This document shows positions 1 through 58,687 of a stretch of 64,000 nt of DNA, piece after piece; position 1 is the first letter of the stretch; every line of letters begins with the position of its first letter. The notes beneath the pieces are model-generated. The model worked only from the letters and a program-made list of their open reading frames with translations. It searched no databases and was not told the DNA's origin. Source of the DNA: Nitrosopumilus sp. (GTDB lineage: Archaea; Thermoproteota; Nitrososphaeria; Nitrososphaerales; Nitrosopumilaceae); NCBI GenBank assembly GCA_965207445.1, contig CBDBLX010000002.1, positions 64,001 to 128,000 on the forward strand, read 5' to 3'. The position numbers and the translations under genes were made by a program.

Positions 1-760
1 TGCATGTAAAGCCGGCGACGTCCCTCCACTACGAGCATTTCCAGTTGTGGCAAAAAGAATGAGGGACGCCATCATGTCGCACATACACGATCCGGTACAC
101 GCGGTAATTTCTGGGCACAATCCAGATGGAACTTCACTTCAGAAGCCACACCTAGCTATAATTCCCTTGGCAAATGTAGGATGGAAAAAATATTCTGACG
201 GGAGACTCTTGGGGCTTGCCATGATATTGCCTAGCACGTCCAAATATGGAAGTGTGGAAAGGAGGCAGTTGAAGGGTGCGGTAATTCAGTTTCTAAATTC
301 AAGCCAATCCAAGCCCGAAGAGGCCGGCACTCTGCAAATTGGCATGCACACAAAACTGCAGTTGAAGAGATACAATGGTGACAAAGCGTCTCTGCAATCA
401 GGGCGCTACATGCAGAGTAGTAAGACTTGGAATACCGTAACCCCGATCGTGCTGGACAAGCACCCAAAGAAGAATAAGAGCGCAGAGGACATAATATCTG
501 ACAGTTGTGAGAATGTGGAGCTACCAAGGCCAGTGTCGATCGAGATCTCCAGGTACTCGCGCGTGGTAGGCGCCTCCGCGGCGTTTACGGCAAAGAAATC
601 AAGTGACGGTTGGATGCCACCCAAGCGCGGAATGCTGGATAACAAATTCATATGCCACGCATCACTCAGATTTAATGACATGGTGCGCGGACCCGTGATT
701 ATAGGTTCCGGACGATATTATGGGTTAGGATTGTGTGTGAGACAAGGTGAGAGGGTGTAG
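1..760 (+). CDS. csb2: Type I-G Csb2 (Cas5/Cas6 fusion), C-terminal part; the frame is open back to the window start
   Basis: Motifs HLAIIPL, TWNTVTPIVLD and a Gly-rich Cas6-type C-terminus (GPVIIGSGRYYGLGLC). The stop overlaps the cas3 start. Confidence 0.88.
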   Translation, partial: ACKAGDVPPLRAFPVVAKRMRDAIMSHIHDPVHAVISGHNPDGTSLQKPHLAIIPLANVGWKKYSDGRLLGLAMILPSTSKYGSVERRQLKGAVIQFLNSSQSKPEEAGTLQIGMHTKLQLKRYNGDKASLQSGRYMQSSKTWNTVTPIVLDKHPKKNKSAEDIISDSCENVELPRPVSIEISRYSRVVGASAAFTAKKSSDGWMPPKRGMLDNKFICHASLRFNDMVRGPVIIGSGRYYGLGLCVRQGERV

Positions 761-3651: not shown

Positions 3652-4559
3652 GTAAAGACGTCGAGATGCGCGGGTTTGACGGCCACAACCTACTCGCATT
3701 TCTTGCTCTGTTGGGATTGTTGACCGCACTTGGCAGATCGCGTCCGGAGTGGAACCCACGCGCGTCTTGGGCGGGAGTAACACCACACCTGCACATATCA
3801 ACTGAGGCAAACCAGGAACAGATCGTCCGAGAAGTTCTCAAAGGCATAAGTGAAATCGGAGGCCTAATGAAGTTCAGTCCGCTCAAGAACCTGAAACTTA
3901 CGCATGAAGAATTTAGCAAGTTACAGGAGCGAATATCACCGGAAATTATGGTGGCACTTGGATCCGATGGGGCTGCAGATGATACAGGTAAAGTCCTGTA
4001 TCCTCCTTTGTGTACCATGCTTGGTAGTGGGAAGCAGAATTTTTTGGAGCGGCTTGAGAATGCCACATGTGTCGACTATGATGAGGGTGATAAAAATATT
4101 GAAAAAATAAAAAACGTATTGTTTGAAAAATGGGAATACAAGGATAAAGAATCAAAGATTACGTTTCGGTGGGATCCCAAGGAGTATCGACCGCATGCAT
4201 ATCGTGCGAAAAACCCAAGTATTGAGAAATTTTCTGCAATTGATGGCGCGAATCGACTGGCAGCAGTGGGCTTTATCAACTACTGGTGCGTTCCAACCAA
4301 AAATAAGCTAAGTACGGTTGCGTGTAAAAGAGATGGTAAGACTTGGAGTACATTCTGGCCAATTTGGACGAAAAAGATGACACTCGGCTCAATACGCGCA
4401 CTCATGTGTAGTCAATATATGGCCAGCATACAGAACAATAAACTTACCCGTGATGAAGAGCTAAGTTTAAAGGCAATGGGAGTGACTCAAGTCATAAAAG
4501 CCCATATATTTTGGGATGAAAAGTTCCGTAACGTTACATGGGGAGAGCGAGTTTTTTAG
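3648..4559 (+). CDS. cas8g: Type I-G large subunit Cas8g (Cas8u, short Csb3-like form)
   Basis: Overlaps the cas3 stop (ATGA). N-terminal LLAFLALLGL, GSGKQNF, RWDP and GANRLAA motifs; position in a csb2-cas3 operon. Confidence 0.72.
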   Translation: MSKDVEMRGFDGHNLLAFLALLGLLTALGRSRPEWNPRASWAGVTPHLHISTEANQEQIVREVLKGISEIGGLMKFSPLKNLKLTHEEFSKLQERISPEIMVALGSDGAADDTGKVLYPPLCTMLGSGKQNFLERLENATCVDYDEGDKNIEKIKNVLFEKWEYKDKESKITFRWDPKEYRPHAYRAKNPSIEKFSAIDGANRLAAVGFINYWCVPTKNKLSTVACKRDGKTWSTFWPIWTKKMTLGSIRALMCSQYMASIQNNKLTRDEELSLKAMGVTQVIKAHIFWDEKFRNVTWGERVF

Positions 4560-4568
4560 TGCAATATA

Positions 4569-4603
4569 ATTTCAATGAGTCATAATTTGTTAGTTGTAGA
4601 AAT
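4569..4603 (-). repeat. Degenerate terminal (trailer-end) CRISPR repeat
   Basis: ATTTCAATGAGTCATAATTTGTTAGTTGTAGAAAT aligns to the consensus at both ends (TTCAATG...GTTG..GAAAT) and lies one spacer length before the first intact repeat. Confidence 0.75.
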
Positions 4604-4639
4604 ATAGGATTTTGTTTATGCTCTCGAGTCCGGGGCGAT

Positions 4640-7600
4640 GCTTCAATGGGGCCGCAACTTTTGCGTTGCGGAAATAACAGTGTTCATATATTTTGACGCC
4701 GCCTCCATGACCGCTTCAATGGGGCCGCAACTTTTGCGTTGCGGAAATTTGTCTTGGATGTTTATGATAAATTCATTATGTATGCTTCAATGGGGCCGCA
4801 ACTTTTGCGTTGCGGAAATTTACGCCACCTCAGCAGCACTCACCACTCACGATGCATCTTCAATGGGGCCGCAACTTTTGCGTTGCGGAAATTATTGTGA
4901 ATTAAACATACCATATATTAAACTCAACTCTTCAATGGGGCCGCAACTTTTGCGTTGCGGAAATCTAATCTAGAAATTTTTGTAACTTTTTTAATATATC
5001 TGCTTCAATGGGGCCGCAACTTTTGCGTTGCGGAAATATAAAAAATAATATCGTATATAATAATTAAATGTTAAGCTTCAATGGGGCCGCAACTTTTGTG
5101 TTGCGGAAATCATCTGCTTTGAGCTTGACAGACTGCTGAAAAAAGACGCTTCAATGGGGCCGCAACTTTTGTGTTGCGGAAATAGATGTACGTTCGGCAA
5201 ATACTCTCTCACCATTATACGCTTCAATGGGGCCGCAACTTTTGCGTTGCGGAAATTCACGACAATCTCAATACGTAGAAGAGAAGGCACCGGGCTTCAA
5301 TGGGGCCGCAACTTTTGTGTTGCAGAAATGTGTCTATACGTGTATATCTTATCTTGCTCAATTTTGCTTCAATGGGGCCGCAACTTTTGTGTTGCGGAAA
5401 TGTGTCTATACGTGTATATCTTATCTTGCTCAATTTTGCTTCAATGGGGCCGCAACTTTTGTGTTGCGGAAATTGCCATGGGATCATAATACACACCTGC
5501 CACCCCGTAGCTTCAATGGGGCCGCAACTTTTGTGTTGCGGAAATTCACGACAATCTCAATACGTGGAAGAGAAGGCACCGGGCTTCAATGGGGCCGCAA
5601 CTTTTGTGTTGCGGAAATTAACATCGGTGAGAAAACTATGATTACACCTGACATGCTTCAATGGGGCCGCAACTTTTGTGTTGCGGAAATCGTGACCGAA
5701 CATCATGTCTACTAACTCGGCTTGCATACTTCAATGGGGCCGCAACTTTTGTGTTGCGGAAATCAAATTTTGAATTTGCTCATGACGCAACAATATCAAG
5801 ACTTCAATGGGGCCGCAACTTTTGTGTTGCGGAAATGTCACTGCCTGGTATTACTCTGTCTGAATTTGTGACGCTTCAATGGGGCCGCAACTTTTGTGTT
5901 GCGGAAATGAAACCCTATGTATGAAGGGTAAGTCATTATCGACGTTGCTTCAATGGGGCCGCAACTTTTGTGTTGCGGAAATAATCACAAGACAGGTGGA
6001 CACCAACAAGATCGAGCCGCTTCAATGGGGCCGCAACTTTTGTGTTGCGGAAATCAACCACACCCACACCACCTACCACTAAGGAGACGGGCTTCAATGG
6101 GGCCGCAACTTTTGTGTTGCGGAAATCACAATTGCGGGTCTTCGTTTGTCTGTCCCATGTATGCTTCAATGGGGCCGCAACTTTTGTGTTGCGGAAATCT
6201 AGTTGTTGCTGTAACAAAAAGCGGTAAAACCGTAGCTTCAATGGGGCCGCAACTTTTGTGTTGCGGAAATCTAGTTGTTGCTGTAACAAAAAGCGGTAAA
6301 ACCGTAGCTTCAATGGGGCCGCAACTTTTGTGTTGCGGAAATGACTACAAAAAATACATATTTTGGCATGTATACTGGTGCTTCAATGGGGCCGCAACTT
6401 TTGTGTTGCGGAAATCGCTTCATGACGGGCCAACATGTCAGCGTGACCAACGCTTCAATGGGGCCGCAACTTTTGTGTTGCGGAAATCTATAAAGGTATC
6501 AAGTGTTTGTCCTATTGCTGGTAGCTTCAATGGGGCCGCAACTTTTGTGTTGCGGAAATCAATGATGGTAATTTTCCGTCAGTATCTGCCGCAGTTGCTT
6601 CAATGGGGCCGCAACTTTTGTGTTGCGGAAATTCGCCCCTTTTGTACGCCCAATTCGGCTTTCTCAACTTTGCTTCAATGGGGCCGCAACTTTTGTGTTG
6701 CGGAAATACGCTTATCATTTGGCACACCACACCCACCATAATCGCTTCAATGGGGCCGCAACTTTTGTGTTGCGGAAATATTGGGCAGCGGCGGCGGCAA
6801 TGCAAACAAAAGAGTGCTTCAATGGGGCCGCAACTTTTGTGTTGCGGAAATCAAGACGCAAAAAAATGGATTGCTTTTGTGTCAAAGCTTCAATGGGGCC
6901 GCAACTTTTGTGTTGCGGAAATCTGAGGAGGACTACAAACGACTAAAACAATACGTAATGCTTCAATGGGGCCGCAACTTTTGTGTTGCGGAAATCTGAT
7001 GCTGGCAAATTAGAGATCAGACTAGCCGCGATGCTTCAATGGGGCCGCAACTTTTGTGTTGCGGAAATTACATCATGTATTACCACCTGTAACCCCGTCG
7101 TTTGTAGCTTCAATGGGGCCGCAACTTTTGTGTTGCGGAAATATATACAAGAAACTATTCAAGTGTATAACGCCATATTGCTTCAATGGGGCCGCAACTT
7201 TTGTGTTGCGGAAATAGGGGCGTCAGACAGATTCTGCACGGACTGCCGTGGTGCTTCAATGGGGCCGCAACTTTTGTGTTGCGGAAATGTGACCTCAGTT
7301 GCGGAATTGTCAACTGTACTGTTGCTTCAATGGGGCCGCAACTTTTGTGTTGCAGAAATTCCCCCAAGAAGCAATGGCAACCGGCAACGACTATCTGCTT
7401 CAATGGGGCCGCAACTTTTGTGTTGCGGAAATATGGAATTACAGCGGGAGGCAAACACTGCCATAATCGCTTCAATGGGGCCGCAACTTTTGTGTTGCGG
7501 AAATGTTTTTTCTTTGATGACTTCTAAAAAACCAAAGACATGCTTCAATGGGGCCGCAACTTTTGTGTTGCGGAAATCGAGTCGGGATCAAATGGAATCT

Positions 7601-10600
7601 CCACAGGTTCAGGCTTCAATGGGGCCGCAACTTTTGTGTTGCGGAAATTGCTGTGCGGAATCAGAAATGCGCATATATCAGACGGGCTTCAATGGGGCCG
7701 CAACTTTTGTGTTGCGGAAATATGGAATTACAGCGGGAGGCAAACACTGCCATAATCGCTTCAATGGGGCCGCAACTTTTGTGTTGCGGAAATGTTTTTT
7801 CTTTGATGACTTCTAAAAAACCAAAGACATGCTTCAATGGGGCCGCAACTTTTGTGTTGCGGAAATCGAGTCGGGATCAAATGGAATCTCCACAGGTTCA
7901 GGCTTCAATGGGGCCGCAACTTTTGTGTTGCGGAAATTGCTGTGCGGAATCAGAAATGCGCATATATCAGACGGGCTTCAATGGGGCCGCAACTTTTGTG
8001 TTGCGGAAATTAAACCCCTTGCTAAATATTAACAGTGCAGATAATAGCTTCAATGGGGCCGCAACTTTTGTGTTGCGGAAATTTAGTGTCCGCCGTTAAT
8101 GTGGCCGTAGTCGTAGCCGCTTCAATGGGGCCGCAACTTTTGTGTTGCGGAAATATAGAAAGCCATTGCGTAATAATCAGAATTATCACCTGCTTCAATG
8201 GGGCCGCAACTTTTGTGTTGCGGAAATTATACCGCGCCCTGCCAATATAATGAATATACATGCCGCTTCAATGGGGCCGCAACTTTTGTGTTGCGGAAAT
8301 CATTACGTCTACGGTATTCATCAGCATCTCACCTACGCTTCAATGGGGCCGCAACTTTTGTGTTGCGGAAATCAGGCACCACGCTTGTGGCGGCAAAAAG
8401 TTTAGGCAGGCTTCAATGGGGCCGCAACTTTTGTGTTGCGGAAATCACGGCAAGCACCACTATCATTATAATTGCAGGCCAAACCTTCAATGGGGCCGCA
8501 ACTTTTGTGTTGCGGAAATCGAGGGACGACACAAGCCAAACTACTTCCCAAGATTATCCTTCAATGGGGCCGCAACTTTTGTGTTGCGGAAATACGGGCC
8601 GTCAAACCCGTGTAGAGTTCATGATCGTTCCTTCAATGGGGCCGCAACTTTTGTGTTGCGGAAATTACTGTACTTTGAAATTTACGCCACGTGTGTGAGG
8701 TACCTTCAATGGGGCCGCAACTTTTGTGTTGCGGAAATCCACTGCCAAGAGTTGTATTACTTCCAAATTTCTTACCTTCAATGGGGCCGCAACTTTTGTG
8801 TTGCGGAAATCCCTCCCAGTCCTCATAGTCGGCATCAAATATGCACACCTTCAATGGGGCCGCAACTTTTGTGTTGCGGAAATTCTACTAGAAGCAAGGC
8901 AGGCCTTAAAGATAGAGCTACCTTCAATGGGGCCGCAACTTTTGTGTTGCGGAAATTTAAAATAGAGATTTCATCGCATGAAGCCCGTGCGTTCCTTCAA
9001 TGGGGCCGCAACTTTTGTGTTGCGGAAATTATGATAATATTGTGGTTCTTTTTTGCATGTTTGGGTCCTTCAATGGGGCCGCAACTTTTGTGTTGCGGAA
9101 ATACCCAAATCAAACAATAATTGAACGGTGTAATTTAGATCCTTCAATGGGGCCGCAACTTTTGTGTTGCGGAAATCAAAAGCCACAGTATATGTAAGTG
9201 GTTCGTTATATAGCCTTCAATGGGGCCGCAACTTTTGTGTTGCGGAAATCTTTTGTGCAGATAAAGGTATTACATGGCATACAGTCCTTCAATGGGGCCG
9301 CAACTTTTGTGTTGCGGAAATTTGATATCACGTCCATCCCCGGTATGAGGTCTACTCCTTCAATGGGGCCGCAACTTTTGTGTTGCGGAAATGGTGTTCA
9401 TGAATGATAGTGAGGCCCCTATTACCGTTCCTTCAATGGGGCCGCAACTTTTGTGTTGCGGAAATCAGTAAAACAGAGAAACGACGCAAGCCAAGCAGGC
9501 CCTTCAATGGGGCCGCAACTTTTGTGTTGCGGAAATCCCCACATAGTGGTTATACTTCTCCTCTAGTCAATCACCTTCAATGGGGCCGCAACTTTTGTGT
9601 TGCGGAAATCTAGTGACTATGATACTATTGAACAGTATTATGGCCCTTCAATGGGGCCGCAACTTTTGTGTTGCGGAAATCTGCCACCCTCATATCTATT
9701 CTTGTGATGTTCGTTGTGCCTTCAATGGGGCCGCAACTTTTGTGTTGCGGAAATCATGTGGGTAGTTTTACCACTATTATCAATACCCTCACCTTCAATG
9801 GGGCCGCAACTTTTGTGTTGCGGAAATCGTCAATATCTCCTTTATCGACGCGGCCGGGTGTCAACCTTCAATGGGGCCGCAACTTTTGTGTTGCGGAAAT
9901 AAGTCCATAAATGGTGTAAATGTATGCAGGTATTATGCCCTTCAATGGGGCCGCAACTTTTGTGTTGCGGAAATCTAGGCCTAATTGACGTAACATCTTA
10001 AACATATCAGACCTTCAATGGGGCCGCAACTTTTGTGTTGCGGAAATTGGATATTACAGTTTCTTGATCTGTAGAGTTGACATATCCTTCAATGGGGCCG
10101 CAACTTTTGTGTTGCGGAAATTTCTCTAGGGGAATTGTATACTCTGGATTGCGATCAGGCCTTCAATGGGGCCGCAACTTTTGTGTTGCGGAAATTACAT
10201 AATGACCACTGGCAAGTCACTGTACAAAAGGCACCCTTCAATGGGGCCGCAACTTTTGTGTTGCGGAAATTTGAATCAATATTTAGATATTTAACCGCTT
10301 GCTTGACCTTCAATGGGGCCGCAACTTTTGTGTTGCGGAAATACATGTGTGTATTATTGCTCAGTTGACTGTTTATTTCCTTCAATGGGGCCGCAACTTT
10401 TGTGTTGCGGAAATAGGACAAGATATTGAGTATAAGCAATTATACCTTAGCCTTCAATGGGGCCGCAACTTTTGTGTTGCGGAAATTCATTTTACTGCAC
10501 AATATGTGCACACAATTGTAACCTTCAATGGGGCCGCAACTTTTGTGTTGCGGAAATTCATCACATGAGGGTTCAGTCTCATCGAGGTGGCCGTTCCTTC

Positions 10601-10678
10601 AATGGGGCCGCAACTTTTGTGTTGCGGAAATTTGCGGAATTATCCACAGTGTTATTAAATTTGTCACCTTCAATGGGG
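4640..10678 (-). CRISPR. CRISPR array, leader-distal part: 83 intact repeats plus the left piece of the IS-split repeat
   Basis: + strand repeat (G/C)CTTCAATGGGGCCGCAACTTTTG(T/C)GTTGCGGAAAT, 36 bp, with a CCGCAAC/GTTGCGG hairpin; spacers about 35-39 bp. Minus-strand transcription is inferred from the ATTGAAG(C/G) 3' end and the degenerate repeat on the left. Confidence 0.98.
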
Positions 10679-11086
10679 GTAACAGTTCAACCCCTATTTT
10701 GTAAGTAGTCATGCAGATACAGCAATAGCGATCACCGATCATTACTGTGATCGAATTTACGTAAATCTAAATGATAAACACGACGATATGTGAGAAAGTG
10801 CTCAAAATGTTGAAAACACGTTTGATTATTTTTTGCATCTAGGCAGGAAATTACTCAACTAATTGACCTGTGGTCAGCTTTTGACATTGCGGCCTGTTAA
10901 ATACATATTTTTCTACTTATCATTGTACTCGAAAATGATAAGTAGAAAATCTATTGATATTGTATTGCAAAAACAGTATTTAGACTATTTTAACCACAAT
11001 AATGAAAATTTACATAATTGTGTACATGGTGTACGCAAACACAGTTGTGCGGTGGGTAGCAAAATCATCAGAGGTGGTGTGTTGCA

Positions 11087-11356
11087 ATGATCTCAGAGAT
11101 GGCCACACTGCGCAAAGAAATTCATACATTGCACTCACAGTTGGATTCTGCAAATGATACGATACGCAACAATTCTGCTGAATTAGAGAAGAGTCATCTA
11201 GAGACGGCTACTGCGCGAGCAGAGATTGCGGTATTAGAAGAGAAATACTCCAAAATGTCTGCCAAAAACAAGCAGCTTGAGGATACAATAAAGCAACAGC
11301 AACAGCCACAATTGCAGTCAGGAATGCATAGTTTTGAGAGAGTCAGGAATGCATAG
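11087..11356 (+). CDS. Coiled-coil ORF inside the IS66 element, probably the detached N-terminal leucine-zipper part of the transposase
   Basis: Heptad-rich sequence that ends within a 25-bp tandem duplication (11316-11365) just before the transposase ORF. Confidence 0.55.
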   Translation: MISEMATLRKEIHTLHSQLDSANDTIRNNSAELEKSHLETATARAEIAVLEEKYSKMSAKNKQLEDTIKQQQQPQLQSGMHSFERVRNA

Positions 11357-11358
11357 TT

Positions 11359-12756
11359 TTGAGAGAAGAGGTTGCACAACTAAAACAACAACTCCAACAA
11401 AAAACCAGACAACACCACCGTGTTGATAATGCCCACACACCTCCCTCTGCAGGAAGTGACTCACAAAATAAACTCAAAAATTACAGACGCGAACATGAAG
11501 AACGCTGTTACTTGGAATATGGAATAGTTATGGAAGCCATTACTAATTCTGACAATTATGTACTCGAAAATGCAATTGCACATGAAACCAACGACAAAGC
11601 GGTTAGAAAAGGAGTCAGTCTAATCCTGTATGGGTTAGAAGAGAAGACAAAAGGAAAAAAATGGAATGAAGAGGAGGAGGAGAAAACAACAATATACAAC
11701 ATGGGCGTCACAGAGGAAATTGACTGTACAGTAGACAAATGCCCCGAATGTGGTGCAGATGTAGATGTTAAACACGAATGCAAGATGGTAATAGACACTC
11801 CAGTAATAGTCAAAGCCACAAAAAAACGGATTAAATCATCAAAAGGCAAATGCAAAAACAACCACAAAATAAACACCATGCCCAAAGGATATACCAAAGG
11901 CTCAATGTTTGGCCCCAATCTCATGACCATGATCGTATTCATGTTCTTTACAACACTCAGTCTAAACTCCATATCACACATGCTAACGCTAGTCGGCGTT
12001 CCAAAGGTCTCAAAGGTGACCATAATGAATGCTCTTACAGCAGTAGCAAGAGAAAAGTTTGCAGCAACTGCAAAACAGATCTCAAAAAATCTTGCAAAAA
12101 CAAGATATTTGATGGGTGATGAAACGCCAGTCAAAATAGGCATAAAACGTGGCTATGCGTGGGTCTTCATAGGCGAATATGGCATCAGTTTTGTCATTAC
12201 TCGCTCACGTGGTGCGGCTGTATTAGATATACACTGTCCGTTATTTGACATTCCAATCGTGGTGGATGGATACGCCGCATACAACAAATTCAAAACCAAA
12301 CAGCGCTGCTGGGCGCATGTTTTGCGCGATGCCGAACTGCTGGCAGCCATGCAAGGCGGCAATCTCGTAGAATTACACCAAAAACTCCAGCACATATTTC
12401 ACGAGGCCAAACAGCTACCCCCAGACACCACAGATCAACAACTGCAAGACAACTGGATAGATCCCGTCATGGCAATTGCAGGCACATATACAGAACTAGG
12501 ATATTCGTTTGGTGGCAAACTGCTCAATGCGGCGCCAGACCTGTTTACATTTGTCAAATATCCGGGCATGCCACCTACCAACAACAAATCCGAACGAACA
12601 CTGCGGCGCGTCGTAATTCACAAAAAGATTCGTCAGATGTTTCGCAGTACAACAGGAATGGAAGTTTATGGTATATTGATGTCATGTATGATGACGTGGT
12701 ATGATCAGGACAAGGATCTTGTAAAGAACATCCATAACACCATCATGGCAAGCTAA
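11359..12756 (+). CDS. IS66-family transposase (TnpC-like)
   Basis: DNAHTPPS, CPECG zinc finger, GDETP, VDGY, QRCWAH and PTNNKSERTLR motifs. Confidence 0.9.
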   Translation: MREEVAQLKQQLQQKTRQHHRVDNAHTPPSAGSDSQNKLKNYRREHEERCYLEYGIVMEAITNSDNYVLENAIAHETNDKAVRKGVSLILYGLEEKTKGKKWNEEEEEKTTIYNMGVTEEIDCTVDKCPECGADVDVKHECKMVIDTPVIVKATKKRIKSSKGKCKNNHKINTMPKGYTKGSMFGPNLMTMIVFMFFTTLSLNSISHMLTLVGVPKVSKVTIMNALTAVAREKFAATAKQISKNLAKTRYLMGDETPVKIGIKRGYAWVFIGEYGISFVITRSRGAAVLDIHCPLFDIPIVVDGYAAYNKFKTKQRCWAHVLRDAELLAAMQGGNLVELHQKLQHIFHEAKQLPPDTTDQQLQDNWIDPVMAIAGTYTELGYSFGGKLLNAAPDLFTFVKYPGMPPTNNKSERTLRRVVIHKKIRQMFRSTTGMEVYGILMSCMMTWYDQDKDLVKNIHNTIMAS

Positions 12757-12828
12757 ATCATTCACCAAACTTCATCGCATAGCAGTAGATGTGTGTTGAG
12801 GTGTACAGGTAGGGGGTTTAACTGTTAC

Positions 12829-15634
12829 TCAATGGGGCCGCAACTTTTGTGTTGCGGAAATTGGCATAATGACGATCCGAACAGACACACAAAAACACCT
12901 TCAATGGGGCCGCAACTTTTGTGTTGCGGAAATTTACTAGCGGTGACATATACATGAGACGTTTTGACATCCTTCAATGGGGCCGCAACTTTTGTGTTGC
13001 GGAAATTTACACACCCAGACACAACCAAGCAAAATCTTAGGACCTTCAATGGGGCCGCAACTTTTGTGTTGCGGAAATTCAGAAGTGATTTTAAATCATA
13101 AGTTATTTCCATATAACCTTCAATGGGGCCGCAACTTTTGTGTTGCGGAAATCATGCCATAAAAAAAGCAATCCCACCAGCCGACCTAATCCTTCAATGG
13201 GGCCGCAACTTTTGTGTTGCGGAAATAGCACCCGAGATACACGTGGCTAGAATGGTAAGGGATGCCTTCAATGGGGCCGCAACTTTTGTGTTGCGGAAAT
13301 TCAATACAGTACGATTACAAGGAAGCCACGTACCACCCTTCAATGGGGCCGCAACTTTTGTGTTGCGGAAATTTAGCGCCACGTATGTTCACAAAACAAG
13401 AGAAAGATGCCTTCAATGGGGCCGCAACTTTTGTGTTGCGGAAATATGGGAAGCACTACTTTGTATAGAGATAATAACGATCCTTCAATGGGGCCGCAAC
13501 TTTTGTGTTGCGGAAATCAAAAAAGATGGGACTCTGCACAGGAGTTGCAATGCAACCTTCAATGGGGCCGCAACTTTTGTGTTGCGGAAATCGCACTAAC
13601 ACCAGTCTTTGCACGTTTGCCAAAAATCCTTCAATGGGGCCGCAACTTTTGTGTTGCGGAAATTATGACGCCCTCACGTGGGTACACGTACGGTTGTTCC
13701 CTTCAATGGGGCCGCAACTTTTGTGTTGCGGAAATAGGTCGGGCGTGGATATACCTTGTCCGTATTCTAAACCTTCAATGGGGCCGCAACTTTTGTGTTG
13801 CGGAAATCTAAGTCTTCATTTGCATGACTGCCTGCCATTTCCATCCTTCAATGGGGCCGCAACTTTTGTGTTGCGGAAATAGAACTGATACTGGTACAGG
13901 CAGAACTTATACTCAAACCTTCAATGGGGCCGCAACTTTTGTGTTGCGGAAATTATTACCACTCAACATGAAGCATTTGCTCAACAAGGACCTTCAATGG
14001 GGCCGCAACTTTTGTGTTGCGGAAATTTCAAGGACGCGACCCCGAACCAAACGCACCTAGTGACCTTCAATGGGGCCGCAACTTTTGTGTTGCGGAAATT
14101 AAAGATAAACGAAAAATATCAGCTTTAATCTCAACCTTCAATGGGGCCGCAACTTTTGTGTTGCGGAAATAGCAATATGACGCAATGGACAGACCCCCAG
14201 AATATAGCCTTCAATGGGGCCGCAACTTTTGTGTTGCGGAAATTCGTATATCTACTGCTGTAGAAACCACAAAGCCCGCACCTTCAATGGGGCCGCAACT
14301 TTTGTGTTGCGGAAATTTATAATCCAGTTTTTGATCGTCGGGGGGGACTTGCACCTTCAATGGGGCCGCAACTTTTGTGTTGCGGAAATTGATCACCTAC
14401 TGCGCCGCGTAGATGCACTATGCCAACCTTCAATGGGGCCGCAACTTTTGTGTTGCGGAAATACCCACTTGGTGGCCGCCCCATAGAATACCGCGAGTAT
14501 CCTTCAATGGGGCCGCAACTTTTGTGTTGCGGAAATTAGTATATGTGGTTGTGGTCCATGTGCCTGAGATATATCCTTCAATGGGGCCGCAACTTTTGTG
14601 TTGCGGAAATCATTGGCAGTTGGAGCAGTTGGGTGGCTATTGAGACTAGCCTTCAATGGGGCCGCAACTTTTGTGTTGCGGAAATGTGTAAATTCAAAAG
14701 GTAGACGTTGCATACCACTTGGCCTTCAATGGGGCCGCAACTTTTGTGTTGCGGAAATCTACTATCAATTTACCACTATAACATACATCACACAACCTTC
14801 AATGGGGCCGCAACTTTTGTGTTGCGGAAATTCCATTCGAATCAATATAATCACATGCTTCATAAGATCCTTCAATGGGGCCGCAACTTTTGTGTTGCGG
14901 AAATTGTATGCTCTACGTGCAAATTCATCATCAATGTCAATCCTTCAATGGGGCCGCAACTTTTGTGTTGCGGAAATATTAATATCTATCAATAACAACG
15001 CAACCCCTTGTTTCCTTCAATGGGGCCGCAACTTTTGTGTTGCGGAAATCAAATGGAAATGATCAGAACGAAGTTCAAAGACGCATTCCTTCAATGGGGC
15101 CGCAACTTTTGTGTTGCGGAAATTTAGTGCGCCATATACACATACATTCTCATTACAGAATCCTTCAATGGGGCCGCAACTTTTGTGTTGCGGAAATTAA
15201 CAATACAATTAGTATATACGTTGATGGAATATATCCCTTCAATGGGGCCGCAACTTTTGTGTTGCGGAAATGACACCCAGACATATGGACAATCCAATAA
15301 CCATAGCTCCTTCAATGGGGCCGCAACTTTTGTGTTGCGGAAATCCAATGTGCGGATCGGGTACTGTATGCAAAATGGCGCCTTCAATGGGGCCGCAACT
15401 TTTGTGTTGCGGAAATTGTTTTCAGTAAAATCGATTTGATGTAATATATCTGTCCTTCAATGGGGCCGCAACTTTTGTGTTGCGGAAATTCACTAAGATC
15501 AATAGGTTTCCAATTACGTGAATTATCCTTCAATGGGGCCGCAACTTTTGTGTTGCGGAAATAGTATGCTTTGAGCGCGTTGTATATCTCCACAAACCCC
15601 TTCAATGGGGCCGCAACTTTTGTGTTGCGGAAAT
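12829..15634 (-). CRISPR. CRISPR array, leader-proximal part: right piece of the split repeat plus 38 intact repeats
   Basis: Uniform repeat CCTTCAATGGGGCCGCAACTTTTGTGTTGCGGAAAT; last repeat at 15599-15634. Confidence 0.98.
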
Positions 15635-15807
15635 CCTATACACATGCCGATATTCAACATTATTCACAATTATTCATAAATTTTATTAAAGTTATGTACG
15701 TTCCACAGATTAATTGTAACAGCATTATAGTGTTTGTGCGTTTGCCATATATAATATCTGCGAGTGCTCACACACCTTTCTATTTGTTCCTGACCTCTCG
15801 CACAGAT
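15635..15807 (-). promoter_or_regulatory. Putative CRISPR leader
   Basis: AT-rich non-coding stretch between the cas2 stop and the non-degenerate end of the array; TATA-like TTATATAT on the minus strand near 15750. Confidence 0.65.
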
Positions 15808-16095
15808 CTACACCACTATTGTTGCCTCTCTTTGTGTTTCAAGTGACACACCCATCGTTGTTATCCGCACATCACTTTGACCAACAGGACCCACATTAAC
15901 GATAATGAGACTGTCTTCTTTCATATTCATGATATCTGCTAGATCATCTTTCATTATTATCAATTCACTAGGGCTTAGATCGCACATAAAAACTGAATAT
16001 TGCATATGATCACCATATCCACTCATCTTTTTGTATGTTTGTACAAGCCGTTGTCCATCCCTCACATCATAACACACAAAATATCTGTTGCGCAA
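15808..16095 (-). CDS. cas2: Cas2 (likely TTG start at 16095; the ORF track over-extends it to 16245)
   Basis: RYFVCYDVRD, GDHMQYSVFMC and EDSLIIV motifs; 95 aa directly downstream of cas1. Confidence 0.93.
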   Translation of the reverse strand: MRNRYFVCYDVRDGQRLVQTYKKMSGYGDHMQYSVFMCDLSPSELIIMKDDLADIMNMKEDSLIIVNVGPVGQSDVRITTMGVSLETQREATIVV

Positions 16096-16099
16096 TACA

Positions 16100-17797
16100 T
16101 CACCTCGTACGAAACACAGGGTATGTAGGAATTTCACCCAGTACGTGTCTAGCAAGTAATCTTGCTTGAGTCTCCAATATTCTCCTATAACTTGCACGAT
16201 ACCCAAGTAATGGGTGCATAACTGATGTATCCATACGTCTCTCATATGCCTTTATGATTGTCTTTCTTCCCTCTGCTGAAAGTGACACACCAAAATCAGT
16301 CTTTGTCATATCAGACTCTGTAATCTCACCGTTATTCACAACAGTAAGACATGTAGAGTCACATATGATTGAACGAAATTCTTCTATCAAATCAAGTGCA
16401 AGTGCAGGTTTTGAGTATTTGGGTCGGTGTAAATAACCAAGATATGGATCAAGCCCAACTGCGGAAACAGTAACAGTGGCTTGTCTAGTAAGTACAGCAT
16501 ACAAAAATGATAATATTGCATTAATCGGATCTTTTGGTGGCCTCCTATTTCGACCATCAAAATCAAATGTAGTTGAATCAGATTTTATCATCCCATGAAA
16601 TTCTGAAAAGTATAAACGCGCCGCTATTCCTTCAAATCCAAGTAGAGTATCATACTGTCTTGCAGTTAGCGCTCTATCAGCAAATGATTCCATTTCATTT
16701 ATCTTCTCTATTGGAGGTGACTTGTGATTTCGTCTGAGTAATGTTATACTGTTCTTTATCTTTCCAGCAACGATCTCTCGTGCAATTGCTAGTTGTAAGC
16801 TAGGTTTAGCATATACAGAATGTTGATGTATTCGGAGCTCAATGTTCTTGCTTGCAAGCCCACTAGTCATACCCATGAACCACCCACCATATGTCATATA
16901 ACAAATGGGGATATTTCTCTCACATAGTTCTCTTATTGCTTGTGTGCTAATTTGTACATTTCCAAATATAGTGAGTTCAGATACATCGATAAGTCTAACC
17001 TTTTTAATTTCGTTTTTGGCTTTGATATGCAAACAATCACCTGATTTTGATACGTAGGCGCCTTGTTCTTGTACATACACAGGCACAGCATCATTACGAA
17101 TTGGATACATGCGACGAACTTGATCTTTTGTGATATGTTGCGTTTCATCATCATCATCATTAATAGCACCAAGAAGATTTGTTTCATCAGGCAAACATAT
17201 TCCGACAAGTGAGCATTTTGGACATTTTGGACTATCAACCAATGGTGGCGGCATAAGATCTTTTTGTGCCATTTCCTTCATATCATGTATGGTTTGTAGT
17301 GTCATGGCTATGATTTGATCATCGAAATCTACTGTAACACGTTTCTTGGAGCCAATATAGTATATGATGCCATGTGTACAAGTGTAACCATTAGCGCGTA
17401 AAACCAATCCTTGGGCGCATACTTGAACCACATGATCAGGGTATGTGTTTGTAGGAGTTTGAGGAATTGTACCGCGTTTATACTCTATTGGCGTAGCAAC
17501 ATTTCCATCAATCTCCAATAAATCCATCTTTGCAATCAATCCCAGTTCAGAATCAGAGAGCATGGCAGATCGTGCATGAATGATCTCATCGGCACCATCA
17601 TCCGTATTGCTGGTAGATTTTGTTCTCTTTGATGGTTTGTCAACATTTCGGTGTTTGTATTTACCATCTATAACTTCAGTATTATATGCAAATTCCCCTT
17701 GAGTCCATTCCAAATATGCCAAACGTTTACAGTATGCAAACTGAGTCAACATTCTCACAGGTATAAGATCTGGAACATCACTCTTCTCCATACTCAC
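16100..17797 (-). CDS. cas1: Cas4-Cas1 fusion
   Basis: N-terminal Cas4 (YCKR, MDLLE, PIEYKRG, CPKCSLVGIC) fused to Cas1 (LGFEG, RRPPKDPINAILS, LALDLIEEFR); this fusion is typical of I-G. Confidence 0.95.
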   Translation of the reverse strand: MSMEKSDVPDLIPVRMLTQFAYCKRLAYLEWTQGEFAYNTEVIDGKYKHRNVDKPSKRTKSTSNTDDGADEIIHARSAMLSDSELGLIAKMDLLEIDGNVATPIEYKRGTIPQTPTNTYPDHVVQVCAQGLVLRANGYTCTHGIIYYIGSKKRVTVDFDDQIIAMTLQTIHDMKEMAQKDLMPPPLVDSPKCPKCSLVGICLPDETNLLGAINDDDDETQHITKDQVRRMYPIRNDAVPVYVQEQGAYVSKSGDCLHIKAKNEIKKVRLIDVSELTIFGNVQISTQAIRELCERNIPICYMTYGGWFMGMTSGLASKNIELRIHQHSVYAKPSLQLAIAREIVAGKIKNSITLLRRNHKSPPIEKINEMESFADRALTARQYDTLLGFEGIAARLYFSEFHGMIKSDSTTFDFDGRNRRPPKDPINAILSFLYAVLTRQATVTVSAVGLDPYLGYLHRPKYSKPALALDLIEEFRSIICDSTCLTVVNNGEITESDMTKTDFGVSLSAEGRKTIIKAYERRMDTSVMHPLLGYRASYRRILETQARLLARHVLGEIPTYPVFRTR

Positions 17798-17913
17798 AAA
17801 TCACGCCCACATGATACTATTTATTTGAACGCTAGTAAAATATAAAATGAATATATAAAAATAAGATATGACAGAGTCAACATATTTTTAACACATAAAA
17901 AAATTACAATATT

Positions 17914-45592: not shown

Positions 45593-47166
45593 TTAGGCCA
45601 AAAGCAGAAAGAGTGACGCCGGAACCATCACATATTCTGAAGAAACGTCGAGTCGATCTTTGGATATTACTAGACCCTTGCCACGCGTCTTGTTCAGAAC
45701 CCTACACATGCCGGCTAGGTCACGTCCCGGCCTGTTTCGATATTTTACTTCTATTGGCACCACCATCTTGCCACCGTCATCATATACAAAGTCAACCTCA
45801 CGACCCTTCTCCATGTGATAAAAGATTCTATAGTGGTGGTCAAAATTTTGTTTGCTGGGACTGGCATTAAAGGCCAATCTTGTCAGATGGTTGGCGACAA
45901 TACCCTCTATCAACACACTTTTGTTTTCGCTTGCATCAAGGTATTCTGATGATGCGTCAAAGTAGCCCCTAGATGCAGTCCATCCATTGAACATGTGAAA
46001 GAAAAACGGATCAACAAAGTAGATTTTTTTGTTACGGTGAAACATAGGGCTCCTGCTATCCATATTGTATCCATATATTGTAAGCAAAACGAAGAGGTTT
46101 GAGAGTGTCTGCACAGAGTCCTGTACCGTCTTGGGGGATCCGACATCTGCATTCTTGGCCATGTTGTTCCATGATGCATGGCTTCCTTGTGACTTTACAA
46201 CCTCCCTGCCAACGCGTTTTAACAGATTATTGTCTCTGCCAAGCCTTGACCACTCCCCCATGATGCTATCCATGTATGTACTGTACACGTTTTCGCGAAT
46301 AGGCAAAGTCGATGCTTGGGCATTTACGACAAAAGGAATTCCTCCGCTGTACATGTATTTGGACAAAAGATCGTCTAACAAGTGTTGATGCATGTGAGTG
46401 AGATCCATTGCACGATCTACTTCACCATTTGCCAGTTTGCCAAATGTTGTAAGCCGATCCTTGGATCTGAGAAAATACGAATCCACAATCGTTCTTATCT
46501 CCGAATCCATCGCACTGGCATACTCTGCAAACTTTAACGGAAAAAGAACTTTGTCGTGAGGTTCTGTTGTGCTTCCCCTTCGCCCGGGCAGCCGTTCAAT
46601 TGATCTCTGCAGGTCTATTGCATCAGAACCCGTCGCCATGACGGTACTGTTTGCAATACTGTTTCTATCCTTCAATCGTTTTATACCCTTTTGCCAGTTT
46701 GGGATGGTCGATACCTCATCTAGGAAGATGTAACGCCTCCCTTTATCCCACATACGACGTGTTAGTCTATTGTAAGACTCTACTACGTCGACCAGCTCAC
46801 TCGGTGTCTTGCACAGATCAAATGAATAGTAGAGTATGTTCCAAGGAGATGTTCCTTTCTTCAAGAATTCGCGTATCTGTAGTTTTAACAGGGTGGTCTT
46901 TCCAATCTGGCGTGTTCCCCTTAATGTATACACTACAGGATTGTCGGGCTCAAAATCATAGGTTATCTTGTGCATTATTCTCGGTACAATTTGCAACTTT
47001 GATCTCATCCACATTGTTATCTCCGGATCATCGTCAACCCAGTCAGAACCTCTCCACCATGGATTGTCCCTTATGATCTCACGTTCTACATCGAGATTAT
47101 CAAACTTTACTTGTCAGAACCTCTCCACCATGGATTGTCCCTTATGATGTCGCCATCTGCAATCAT
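45593..47166 (-). pseudogene. AAA_14/DUF4143-type ATPase with a C-terminal PD-(D/E)xK-like motif; 5' end interrupted by a 71-bp insertion (residual ORF 45593-47014)
   Basis: GTRQIGKTT, IFLDEV, TGS, GGIP, KKIYFVDP and EVDFV...PIEVK motifs. Removing 71 bp joins ATG 47166 (MIADGDIIRDNPWWRGSD) in frame. Confidence 0.82.
47042..47148. repeat. Exact 36-bp direct repeat around a 35-bp unique insert
   Basis: GTCAGAACCTCTCCACCATGGATTGTCCCTTATGAT at 47042-47077 and 47113-47148. Confidence 0.95.
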
Positions 47167-47203
47167 GCACTGTACTACTAAGTAATTTATATAAGAATTG
47201 TCA

Positions 47204-47275
47204 TCACACTACTAACTTAGTTATATACTAACTATCCTCACACTACTAACTTAGTTATATACTAACTATTCTCAC
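47204..47275. repeat. 34-bp tandem duplication upstream of the ATPase gene; each unit contains a palindrome
   Basis: TCACACTACTAACTTAGTTATATACTAACTAT x2; TAGTTA-N5-TAACTA within each unit. Confidence 0.85.
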
Positions 47276-55459: not shown

Positions 55460-56262
55460 TTATCTCACATGAAGTTTCTTTCTCAATTAATTAAATTGTA
55501 CTTTGCGTTGTTCGGGAATTGTATATTTTAGTTAACTGTGTGAGACCCTAAAACCAACCCCTACTATGAATCAGAGTACCCGGCAAGCATTTTAGGGAAG
55601 GTATAACTCGGACTGAATTGTTCAAGATATTCCCTGATAATCAGTTTGCAATGCAGTGGTTTGAGAGGCGCATATGAAATGACGGTAGAGGATGCCCAAC
55701 TTGCGAGAATCCATACACCACAGTATCCACACAAAAGACGACGCCTTACTATTGTTACAAGTGCCGGCACTTTTTCTCAGTCAAAAAAGGTACTGTAATG
55801 AAGCAGCCACACATATCATATCAGAATGGGCTATTGGAACCTATCTTGTTGTAACTAACCTGAGGTGTCTCAAGTATGAAAATTCATAGAGATTTAGGAA
55901 TGACCCAAAAGTCTGCATGATTCATGCTTACAAGGCTCCTCGAATCTTGGAAGCAGTTGGCAGGCGTTGATAAGATGGATGGGACTAGAGACTGATGAGG
56001 CGTTCGTTGGTGGCTCAGATAAGAAGAATCGTCATGCAGACAAGAAAGTCACCAAACCAAAGACTGCTGTAGGTGGTGTCAAAGACCGTACATCAAACAA
56101 GGTTACTGTAAAGCCAGTGCCAGAAATTACAAAGACATGCTTGGAAGATTTCATTGAAAAGAATGTGACCGAGGATGCCAAAAAATACACTGATGAAAAT
56201 AGGATATATTCTGACTTGAGGAATCACGAGTCCGTAAACCACTTTGTAGGAGAGTATGTAAG

Positions 56263-56370
56263 GGGACAGGCGCATACAAACGGCACGGAGTTATTCTAGC
56301 TGAGAGACTAGAAGCTAAAAGAATAGAAAGAGAAAGGGACAGGCGCATACAAACGGCACGGAGTTATTCT
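56263..56370. repeat. Exact 35-bp direct repeat around a 38-bp unique insert
   Basis: GGGACAGGCGCATACAAACGGCACGGAGTTATTCT at 56263-56297 and 56336-56370. Confidence 0.95.
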
Positions 56371-56383
56371 GGTCCATGATGAA

Positions 56384-56489
56384 GTGCGGTTATGATGGAT
56401 GTACCATCACATATCCGACTGCTCTTCTAGTATGATCACGGTCAGTTGTATAACGTGCGGTTATGACGGATGTACCATCACATATCCGA
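56384..56489. repeat. 35-bp direct repeat (1 mismatch) around a 36-bp unique insert
   Basis: GTGCGGTTATGA(T/C)GGATGTACCATCACATATCCGA at 56384-56418 and 56455-56489. Confidence 0.95.
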
Positions 56490-58332: not shown

Positions 58333-58453
58333 TTACAGAGAAGTTACAGAGAAGTTACAGAGAAGTTACAGAGAAGTTACAGAGAAGTTACAGAGAAGTT
58401 ACAGAGAAGTTACAGAGAAGTTACAGAGAAGTTACAGAGAAGTTACAGAGAAG
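58333..58453. repeat. Perfect 11-bp tandem repeat (TTACAGAGAAG) x11
   Basis: Directly visible. Confidence 0.95.
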
Positions 58454-58687
58454 TACCCTCGACACGGGGGGTTTATTTTTTGGGCATCTAAATTTTGCAC
58501 ATGCTACATTACAGATGAGGTAACTCCCATTGCTGTCAATGCGGCAGCAGATCCAAGTCTAGGAGGGGCATGACTACTGCATAAGAAAACAGAACGTTCC
58601 CGTTCAGATAAGGATCACTATAATCGAGCCGTAAGCAGACTGGTATCGGTCAGTGCCAAGAGTGAAAAGACGCGCCAAAATGCAATC

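Follow-up and report, generated by a model that had tools for sequence, protein, structure and literature searches.

Spacer integration outside a CRISPR array has been described for the type I-E system of E. coli by Nivala, Shipman and Church (2018, Nat Microbiol), where off-target events gave rise to neo-CRISPR units. These units share with the one reported here an insert the size of a spacer in DNA that is not CRISPR, a duplication as long as the repeat and, very probably, their nature as Cas1-Cas2 products. The E. coli events were reportedly obtained with over-produced Cas1-Cas2 and near IHF-like motifs, with only circumstantial evidence from two other species; on this showing, off-target integration has so far been a laboratory phenomenon. 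The Cas1-Cas2 of Pyrococcus furiosus carries out full-site integration into non-repeat DNA in vitro with a spacing equal to the repeat length (PMC6698737), a trait it has in common with the present units. The study of type I-G adaptation by Cas4/1-Cas2 (PMC10504553) concerns the same family of enzymes, a Cas4g/Cas1g fusion with Cas2, and the term 'off-target' occurs 0 times in it. Ectopic acquisition in Streptococcus thermophilus also takes place away from the leader-proximal repeat (PMC7999890), and casposons resemble our units in their Cas1-family integrase and their target-site duplications (PMC5137440).

An interrupted ATPase gene and a type I-G system

The window, that is the whole stretch of 64,000 nucleotides that was analysed, comes from a Nitrosopumilus genome (G000). 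It contains an exact 36-nt direct repeat with a period of 71, the two copies of which enclose a 35-nt insert, CTCACGTTCTACATCGAGATTATCAAACTTTACTT. The unit lies at the 5′ end of a gene for an ATPase of the AAA_14/DUF4143 family, for which two uninterrupted alleles were found, one on the second contig of the same genome (C1) and one in another Nitrosopumilaceae genome record (L006). The features of the region are the following.

47174..47275, minus strand: promoter-like repeats of 34 nt, three in tandem and all containing a TATATAA-like box, preceding the ATPase gene (putative promoter)
47149..47166, minus strand: codons 1-6 of the ATPase gene, opening with the original ATG (47166-47164), with the same start in the C1 allele and in L006
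47113..47148, minus strand: promoter-nearer copy of the duplicated target, 36 nt, exact repeat, encoding IIRDNPWWRGSD in frame with ATG 47166
47078..47112, minus strand: spacer-like insert, 35 nt, with a TAA stop as its second codon in the gene frame
47042..47077, minus strand: second copy of the duplicated target, 36 nt, continuous with the rest of the gene and with no start codon upstream in frame
45593..47014, minus strand: remaining AAA_14/DUF4143 ORF, 473 aa from the internal ATG 47014 (Pfam PF13173, 5e-23; PF13635, 2.7e-14), without the NPWW N-terminus

The original prediction had proposed that a spacer-sized insertion disrupts the 5′ end of this gene, with a 36-bp duplication as long as the CRISPR repeat around a 35-bp insert. 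The sequence agrees on each point checked: the duplication is exact, duplication and CRISPR repeat both measure 36 nt, and the gene is truncated after 19 codons. Chance is no plausible source of an exact 36-nt repeat with a period of 71 within 64 kb. The minus-strand frame from ATG 47166 reads MIADGDIIRDNPWWRGSDK and then meets, as had been claimed, a stop just inside the insert; since the added 71 nt bring both a frame shift and a stop, only 19 residues can be translated from the original start. The rest of the gene could yield at best a protein that is shortened at its N-terminus and lacks the conserved NPWW segment. In all eight homologues examined NPWW(K/R) lies about 10 residues from the start, and in the broken copy it is cut off from the remainder, in which both domains of the family are recognized. 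Removal of 71 bp had been expected to add 27 in-frame codons including NPWW, and the uninterrupted C1 allele (MVADGDIIRDNPWWRGSDWVDDDPEITMWMRSK..., 500 aa) indeed has 27 codons before the internal methionine. The position relative to the promoter has to be corrected: it is from the start codon that the duplicated segment is 18 nt downstream, and the 34-nt repeats end about 26 nt before it. These repeats are present in six copies in the C1 allele as against three at the broken gene.

Alignment with uninterrupted alleles had been suggested as a check, and both are empty. The C1 sequence aligns without gaps over 196 nt across the junction at 98.98% identity; it has the 36-mer once, lacks the insert and belongs to an intact ORF of 500 aa. 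In L006, where the gene is about 95% identical, there is again one 36-mer and no insert. A single target copy without insert is what an empty site of a neo-CRISPR unit should look like; homologues sharing the interrupted structure, which the original prediction had named as contrary evidence, were not found in either.

The resident CRISPR-Cas locus is a complete type I-G system by NCBIfam matches above curated cut-offs (Cas4g/Cas1g, Cas2, Cas3g, Csb2, Cas7g). All signature genes of the type (cas3g, csb1/cas7g, csb2 and the cas4g/cas1g fusion) were identified, with cas7g just upstream of the window.

2..4559, plus strand: type I-G effector genes, comprising the 3′ part of csb2 (2-760), cas3g (760-3651) and the gene of a Cas3-extension protein (3648-4559)
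4640..15634, minus strand: CRISPR array, 122 repeats of 36 nt and 120 spacers of 35-39 nt, split by an IS66 element at 10632-12825
15635..15807, minus strand: putative leader, AT-rich, separating cas2 from the first repeat
15808..16110, minus strand: cas2 (NCBIfam TIGR01573, 29.6 bits against a cut-off of 24.5)
16100..17797, minus strand: cas4g/cas1g fusion, candidate integrase, 565 aa (NF049935, 731.5 bits against a cut-off of 560; Pfam Cas1 and Cas4)

The effector genes were assigned with NCBIfam models TIGR02165, TIGR02621 (735 bits), NF049934 and TIGR02570. To judge from the repeat end ATTGAAGG and the degenerate repeats at the low-coordinate end, the array is probably transcribed from the minus strand. 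The fusion is the only Cas1 of the genome, with a single PF01867 match in the whole sequence, and the adaptation module is intact, full-length Cas4g/Cas1g and Cas2 adjoining the 122-repeat array. The 120 array spacers measure 35 (10 spacers), 36 (36), 37 (52), 38 (19) and 39 nt (3), a range that includes the 35 nt of the insert.

The insert itself is 20% identical to its left and 40% to its right flank and has no tandem structure. It differs from all array spacers, among which it had not been seen in the original prediction either, and has no other match anywhere in the genome; it is therefore not derived from a paralogue, and its identity with the 5′ end of a paralogous ATPase, which would have meant a recombination product, did not materialize. 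A virome search had also been proposed, and no source was found, a point that counts against off-target integration: there was no match in an exact search of viral_contigs, by blastn against phage records, or in 400 genomes of the family with up to three mismatches. The inserts of three further units had no exact match in viral_contigs, and the 36-mer target had none in metagenome_contigs.

Units with the same period in this and other genomes

Exact direct repeats of at least 24 nt outside the array were counted per period over the whole genome. Periods 70 to 74 yielded 2, 8, 15, 7 and 2 matches (34 strict matches in total), while the 162 other periods between 30 and 200 average 0.60 (Poisson P=4e-24). 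A mismatch-tolerant scan gave 53 matches against 0.71 per period. After curation, about 32 units remain, or some 50 when mismatches are allowed. The median duplication over 31 of them is 36 nt. Their inserts are 12-47% identical to the flanks, i.e. they are no tandem duplications, and those of separate units are mutually dissimilar, except where copies of a whole IS element carry a unit. For eight units a paralogous site that is empty was found at 83% identity or more, and for four others at a weaker level. Two of the additional units lie in the window, within the same transposase gene.

56260..56370, plus strand: second unit, period 73, 35 nt exact, truncating an IS1595-type transposase gene (PF12762, 1.1e-13, on 55904-56299)
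56379..56489, plus strand: third, older unit, period 71, with copies differing at 1-3 positions, beginning 8 nt after the second unit

Eight units are located within open frames of at least 250 aa. Seven of these have a period of 72 and leave the frame open as in-frame insertions of 24 codons; the ATPase-gene unit is the only one that breaks the frame of a long gene. This skew is the mark of a selection filter and was counted in favour of off-target integration. One in-frame unit concerns the cysteinyl-tRNA synthetase (CysRS). Its orthologues, found in 38 of 40 genomes of the same genus, can be aligned with the G000 frame only from about residue 18-62 onwards, which agrees with an addition at the N-terminus without proving it. 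With the 2′-5′ RNA ligase/phosphoesterase paralogues the linker is too diverged and no clean 24-residue gap was seen. Two observations count against off-target integration. The ectopic periods peak at 72 and those of the array at 73, a shift for which in-frame survival accounts only in part. A few units also have a duplication of 29-32 nt with 41-44 nt between the copies, outside the range of the array spacers; among six such units, we can read three as 36 nt with a small lesion and three not.

A genome of another genus (G097), with 63% GC, a homologous I-G system and an array of 135 repeats of 36 nt, shows the same pattern, periods 70 to 74 giving 4, 4, 12, 9 and 3 matches; 23 units were kept and nine dropped as protein or tandem repeats. 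A genome of the same genus as G000 (G242) has no Cas4/Cas1 match. The tallies of such matches also include the genome G133, with one weak partial match on which no conclusion is based. There, no such unit occurs in the first 800,000 of 1,499,620 bases, where about 10 would be expected at the density of G000, and its period-72 matches number only three, all coding tandem repeats. The comparison across genomes thus comprises two positive cases and one half-scanned negative, which counts against the interpretation.

Copies of the insert in the genome's own DNA exist for 4 of 31 ectopic inserts in G000, where not one of the 120 array spacers matches the genome (P=0.0015), and for 10 of 23 inserts versus 2 of 134 array spacers in G097 (P=3e-8). 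Self copies that are common among the inserts and rare among array spacers correspond to immunologically silent behaviour, and this too was counted for off-target integration. On the other hand, the protospacers identified in G097, nine ectopic and two from the array, yielded no consistent PAM, which counts against it.

It had been suggested that the site in the ATPase gene was chosen for its likeness to a leader-repeat junction. As a rule this does not hold over 31 units: their target sites match leader and repeat at a mean best of 16.6 of 45 positions, against 16.3 for random DNA (P=0.15), and are with 53-55% AT less AT-rich than the genome (60%). A leader-like or palindromic target was likewise rejected, the longest stem measuring 4.58 nt in target sites and 4.58 nt in random DNA. 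A half-site match to the repeat end GCTTCAAT is significant in G097 only (P=0.001), not in G000. The first base of the half-sites is G in 31 and C in 11 of 46 cases in G097, and T is depleted in G000 (7 of 62); according to the P. furiosus study, that enzyme prefers G or C at both attacked positions (PMC6698737).

Probable off-target integration and its alternatives

From the geometry, the empty alleles, the genome-wide excess at the repeat-plus-spacer period and its presence or absence in the other genomes examined, we consider it very likely that the resident type I-G Cas4/Cas1-Cas2 produced the unit in the ATPase gene by integrating a spacer off target. The integrase, charged with a prespacer of about 35 bp, would attack the two strands 36 bp apart, its presumed normal stagger across a CRISPR repeat, in this case inside codons 7-18 of the gene. 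Host repair would then fill both 36-nt gaps, so that the target is duplicated and 36 + 35 + 36 nt are left. A mini-array from which crRNA can be processed would have to be flanked by sequences like the repeat of the system, and the similarity given above is that of random DNA. As neither 36-mer is related to the CRISPR repeat, we take the unit to be, most probably, a silent scar rather than a working mini-array.

An addition of about 72 nt might instead result from a process of this lineage that is independent of CRISPR, such as template switching during repair, in which a short copy of DNA from another place is accompanied by a compensating target duplication and the agreement with the CRISPR period is a coincidence. 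The many exact own-genome copies among the G097 inserts would suit such a process. So would the junctions in that genome, where the protospacer match extends beyond the insert, reaching about 1.3 nt per junction into the duplicated ends versus about 0.4 expected by chance (our estimates), an excess that could reflect pairing-assisted integration or a different copying process. The units with a short duplication and a long gap, whose sum is still 71-73, seem to point the same way; however, this sum is constant under any misassignment of the boundaries, and the apparent compensation is therefore no evidence in itself. Self-derived inserts are moreover to be expected for spacers never expressed as crRNA, and 27 of the 31 G000 inserts have no genomic source. 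Inserts are neither more hairpin-prone than random DNA (P=0.08 and 0.17) nor copies of nearby sequence, so that a hairpin or local-copy origin finds no support. With a peak on the repeat-plus-spacer length in both I-G genomes, absent from 800 kb of the same-genus genome without the system, and a median duplication of 36-37 nt, the length of the repeat, we regard a CRISPR-independent origin as unlikely. It is still less likely that the insertion was made by the integrase and then retained as useful, either as a switch silencing the ATPase or as the seed of a promoter-driven mini-array. The unit does follow immediately on what looks like a strong promoter region, with its tandem TATA-like repeats, and it has reportedly been proposed that new arrays can start from off-target units (Nivala et al. 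2018). Yet in none of about 32 units has a second insert been added between copies of one pseudo-repeat, and the pseudo-repeats are unlike the CRISPR repeat. The exact copies, in the sole unit breaking a long gene, fit a recent, unpurged or neutral event, with an intact second copy on C1.

The second contig duplicates about 120 kb, and the assembly is therefore not clean, which could favour an artefact. An independent assembly nevertheless contains the repeat-insert-repeat path unchanged, in a 101-nt contig found in four runs of one sample that spans 47042-47142 without differences. The depth of this contig relative to the flank is 0.69-0.84, a ratio that is uninterpretable because words of the flank occur in the C1 copy as well; among the contigs of one sample none bridged the insert, and coverage of the stretch was incomplete. 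Such a structure could also be left by a small mobile element that duplicates 36 bp of its target, but the same sequence is not found at many sites as it would be for a MITE-like element: the inserts of different units are unrelated and therefore do not form one element family, and G000 has no casposon-type Cas1. Artefact or mobile element together appear highly improbable to us. We give hardly any credence to ordinary tandem duplication, replication slippage or recombination between paralogues followed by divergence. Close direct repeats can arise by slippage and a near-identical paralogous copy exists in the genome, but this origin is contradicted by the low identity of the insert to its flanks and by a paralogue that has an empty site and nothing resembling the insert, and slippage would leave the genome-wide peak at one period unexplained.

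The units in comparison with known systems

Beyond the single unit, the data make it reasonably probable, with less assurance than for the ATPase gene itself, that the type I-G Cas4/Cas1-Cas2 of the ammonia-oxidising Nitrosopumilaceae is a leaky integrase and thereby a constant natural source of insertional mutations, which would arise without any leader-like context and accumulate as dozens of fixed scars of 71-73 nt in a genome. Such scars would amount to a second archive of captured DNA, one free of selection and containing also self spacers that no real array can keep, and would supply 24-residue insertions to working proteins, the N-terminus of the cysteinyl-tRNA synthetase among them. 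In that case the mutational cost of adaptation and the raw bias between self and non-self capture could be measured straight from genome sequences. This matters in several respects. That the memory-writing enzyme breaks genes would be a rarely quantified cost of adaptive immunity, and insertions that are in frame and free of stops, surviving in linkers and termini, a new source of insertions in proteins. The ectopic inserts would represent an unfiltered sample of captured DNA, enriched in self unlike the array spacers. The histogram of direct-repeat periods is a simple survey method applicable to any CRISPR-bearing genome.

In the literature searched we found no description of such genome-wide natural scars, and the 2018 paper of Nivala and colleagues with its supplements may hold related natural cases. 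The work on P. furiosus was done in vitro, on plasmids and with a 30-bp repeat (PMC6698737), whereas the insertions in G000 are fixed in the chromosome with a stagger of 36 bp. In S. thermophilus the target is a true CRISPR repeat within the array (PMC7999890), in contrast to the unrelated genomic sequences hit here. The inserts in G000 are 35-39 nt long and all different, and there is no second Cas1, unlike in the case of casposons. Casposons are kilobase-sized elements with short duplications.

Unlike the E. coli neo-CRISPR units, the present case is natural, archaeal and of type I-G with a Cas4/Cas1 fusion. The events number dozens per genome and are fixed, their sites have no leader-like context, none has developed into an array, and some are in-frame insertions into proteins. 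G000 offers a clean natural record, with empty alleles and about 30-50 events, and the pattern is repeated in a second genome. The unit in the ATPase gene would thus be a natural case, at an unusual scale, of the kind known from the experiments in E. coli.

An interrupted ATPase gene and its empty alleles

The unit at the 5′ end of the AAA_14/DUF4143 ATPase gene consists of an insert between two copies of the duplicated target (window coordinates, read from the sequence).

47166, minus strand: ATG, start of the AAA_14/DUF4143 gene
47148-47113, minus strand: first 36-nt copy, six codons past ATG 47166
47112-47078, minus strand: 35-nt insert, unrelated to the 36-nt copies
47077-47042, minus strand: second 36-nt copy, the same 36 nt as 47148-47113

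On translation, the frame opened by ATG 47166 encodes MIADGDIIRDNPWWRGSDK and then meets a stop, and the next ORF with a start codon begins at 47014 (473 aa, PF13173 and PF13635 domains). The path from copy through insert to copy (47042-47142) is unchanged in contigs from four runs of one sample, which are possibly the source data themselves. C1, the second contig of the genome, carries an uninterrupted allele with a single 36-mer, no insert and a 500-aa ORF starting MVADGDIIRDNPWWRGSDWVDDDPEITMWMRSK; its alignment with a reconstructed empty site is gapless over 196 nt, with 98.98% identity. When one genome per species was searched for exact copies of the 36-mer, the sole additional locus was a ~95% identical gene in another Nitrosopumilaceae genome, also empty. 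NPWW(K/R) lies near the start of 8/8 ATPase homologues examined, so that the N-terminus before insertion is the normal one of the family, as the original prediction had proposed for NPWW. Its central claim, a spacer-like insertion disrupting the 5′ end of the gene, is likewise borne out by the 36-nt duplication, the 35-nt insert, the stop and the empty alleles. The structure is shared neither by the C1 copy nor by the ~95% identical gene in the other genome, and recombination with a paralogue is excluded since the insert has no second match anywhere in the genome. Given a disrupted frame, two target copies without a single difference and an intact twin gene on C1, the unit fits a recent or tolerated hit.

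C1 (121,040 nt) is collinear with the end of C2, the contig holding the window, and with its first ~129 kb (C2:1-128842). Matches to C2 cover 100,884 of the 121,040 nt in blocks of 95.3-99.0% identity, most large ones 98.2-99.0%, and one block of 9,024 nt is identical. The entire 20.8-kb CRISPR-Cas island (C2:61087-81864; window 1-17864) is missing from C1, which has a 71-nt palindromic element (GTAACCGTTCAACC...GGTTGAACGGTTAC) at this position. C1 may derive from a sister strain that was assembled together with this genome, or may be a segmental duplication; the contamination estimate for the genome is 5.47%. Immediately upstream of the ATPase gene (window 47174-47275), a 34-nt repeat containing a TATATAA-like box stands three times in tandem, against six copies in the C1 allele; this is possibly a promoter region of variable copy number. 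Elsewhere in the window (58333-58454), 11 copies of an 11-nt unit, TTACAGAGAAG, form a perfect tandem repeat upstream of a 938-aa methyltransferase-like ORF.

Recurrence of the unit in two genomes

C1 and C2 were scanned at each spacing between 30 and 200 for direct repeats with an exact match of 24 nt or more; the array, genuine tandem repeats and sequence of low complexity were left out. There were 2, 8, 15, 7 and 2 matches at spacings 70-74, and the other 162 spacings gave a mean of 0.60 (Poisson P=4e-24), the highest of them (12 matches at 141) arising from two coding repeat regions. From 41 rows at spacings 68-77, 6 were removed as tandem or low-complexity and later 3 tandem-like rows and the C1 allele of one unit, leaving 31 units, to which a diverged unit at window 56379 was added. 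A mismatch-tolerant scan of C2 (at least 29/34) yielded 2, 12, 24, 11 and 4 matches at spacings 70-74 and 0.71 per spacing outside them, a peak which implies ~50 detectable events. The median duplication is 36 nt, and the inserts are unrelated to their own flanks and to one another. Empty paralogous sites are clear for 8 units (mostly in IS copies) and weaker for 4 more. One unit is common to four copies of an IS and must thus be older than their spread. Two units are close neighbours:

window 56260-56489: units of period 73 and period 71, separated by 8 nt, within the gene of an IS1595-type transposase (PF12762 at 55904-56299)

The second of this pair, at 56379, is older, its copies differing at 1-3 positions, and the proximity of the two suggests local hot spots. 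The units at C2:1135897, 1463861, 1629809 and 1808826 are located within or next to copies of a small repeated palindrome (…CCAAATTTAGGCACAAATTCACCGCCTAACGTCTGGCG…), which is also the element that C1 carries at the position of the CRISPR island.

In a sample of 200 genomes of the family, 14 encode a full-length Cas4/Cas1 orthologue (55-67% identity, E below 1e-200), and none of the other same-genus genomes in the sample does. Weak Cas1 matches with no Cas4 part (24-33% identity, in open frames of ~300-450 aa) are present in many Nitrosopumilaceae genomes and are possibly casposase-type Cas1. A genome of another genus with a homologous I-G system (G097; 1.86 Mb, 63% GC) has an array of 135 repeats of 36 nt at a spacing of 70-76 nt. 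The same scan gave 4, 4, 12, 9 and 3 matches at spacings 70-74 on a background that is near-empty except for a 75-nt protein-repeat family. This large family of coding repeats (25 residues, motif SWDVSSVTDMSxMF) accounts for 86 matches at period 75, contributes to those at 72, and has to be removed before units are counted; examples are:

G097 291267-292396: SWDVSSVTDMSxMF repeats
G097 1604271: SWDVSSVTDMSxMF repeats

Curation kept 23 units and dropped 9. Units in G097 are also clustered, e.g. three within 3.2 kb near 1478675. The negative control is a genome of the same genus as the Nitrosopumilus genome studied here and has no Cas4/Cas1 match. Its first 800,000 of 1,499,620 bases contain no such unit, where ~10 are predicted from the density in the Nitrosopumilus genome studied here; the three matches that it gives at spacing 72 stem from tandem repeats in coding sequence.

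Target choice, insert origin and selection

Target choice is loose. Ectopic target sites show no likeness to leader or repeat, no excess of dyad symmetry and no AT-richness, and the resemblance to a leader-repeat junction originally suggested for the ATPase site is not supported as a rule. The first duplicated base per strand is G at 31/46 half-sites in G097 (P=9e-7) and T at only 7/62 in the Nitrosopumilus genome (P=4e-4), a bias resembling the G/C preference on non-CRISPR DNA reported for P. furiosus Cas1-Cas2 (PMC6698737).

Selection on the units is visible. Eight lie in open frames of at least 250 aa; seven of these have spacing 72 and leave the frame open, the eighth being that in the ATPase gene. 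In-frame units stand before or between recognised domains of a plastocyanin-like protein, a glucose/sorbosone dehydrogenase, a CAP-domain protein and a 2′-5′ RNA ligase/phosphoesterase, two are in proteins without a confident family match, and one is in a tRNA synthetase:

C2:725450-727003: cysteinyl-tRNA synthetase, in-frame unit at the extreme N-terminus (MTVDSETAVDS...TVDSETAVDS)

Same-genus orthologues of this synthetase align only downstream of the unit.

The resident type I-G system and the origin of the units

The window contains the following array and element:

4640-15634: CRISPR array, 122 repeats of 36 nt
10632-12825: IS66-family element within the array, transposase ORF 11359-12756

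The 120 spacers measure 35-39 nt (mode 37). NCBIfam models assign the system to type I-G (Cas7g, Csb2, Cas3g, I-G Cas3-extension protein, Cas4g/Cas1g, Cas2), with 735 bits for Cas3g (cut-off 400) and 731.5 for Cas4g/Cas1g (cut-off 560), the sole Cas1 of the genome. The array repeat adjoining the IS66 element (12826) has degenerate first bases. Two pairs of neighbouring repeat-spacer units are duplicated (5294-5437 and 6163-6306); units 6163/6235 are identical, 5294/5366 differ by one repeat base, and the spacer at 5221 is nearly the same as that at 5510.

Several observations speak against an origin of the units in off-target spacer integration: the ectopic spacing peaks at 72 and not 73, a few units combine short duplications with long inserts, no PAM could be derived and, by our own count, more bases are shared at G097 junctions than chance would lead one to expect. 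The rival reading is a CRISPR-independent 72-nt process. The inserts were tested for hairpins and for local copies, and neither was found. Inserts with another genomic match number 4/31 among ectopic units against 0/120 among array spacers in the Nitrosopumilus genome (P=0.0015), and 10/23 against 2/134 in G097 (P=3e-8), most self-matches being exact across the whole insert. Such a difference is expected where self DNA is among what is captured, self-targeting spacers are lost from arrays and no crRNA is made from ectopic units, and we read this comparison as support for off-target spacer integration by Cas4/Cas1-Cas2; a process independent of CRISPR is very improbable.

In mechanism, off-target spacer integration as the probable origin of the units is that reported for E. 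coli by Nivala et al. 2018. In contrast to the case presented there, the events described here are natural, archaeal and of type I-G, and dozens are fixed in each of two genomes. They also differ from it in having no leader-like context and no array growth, and in their protein-coding outcomes.
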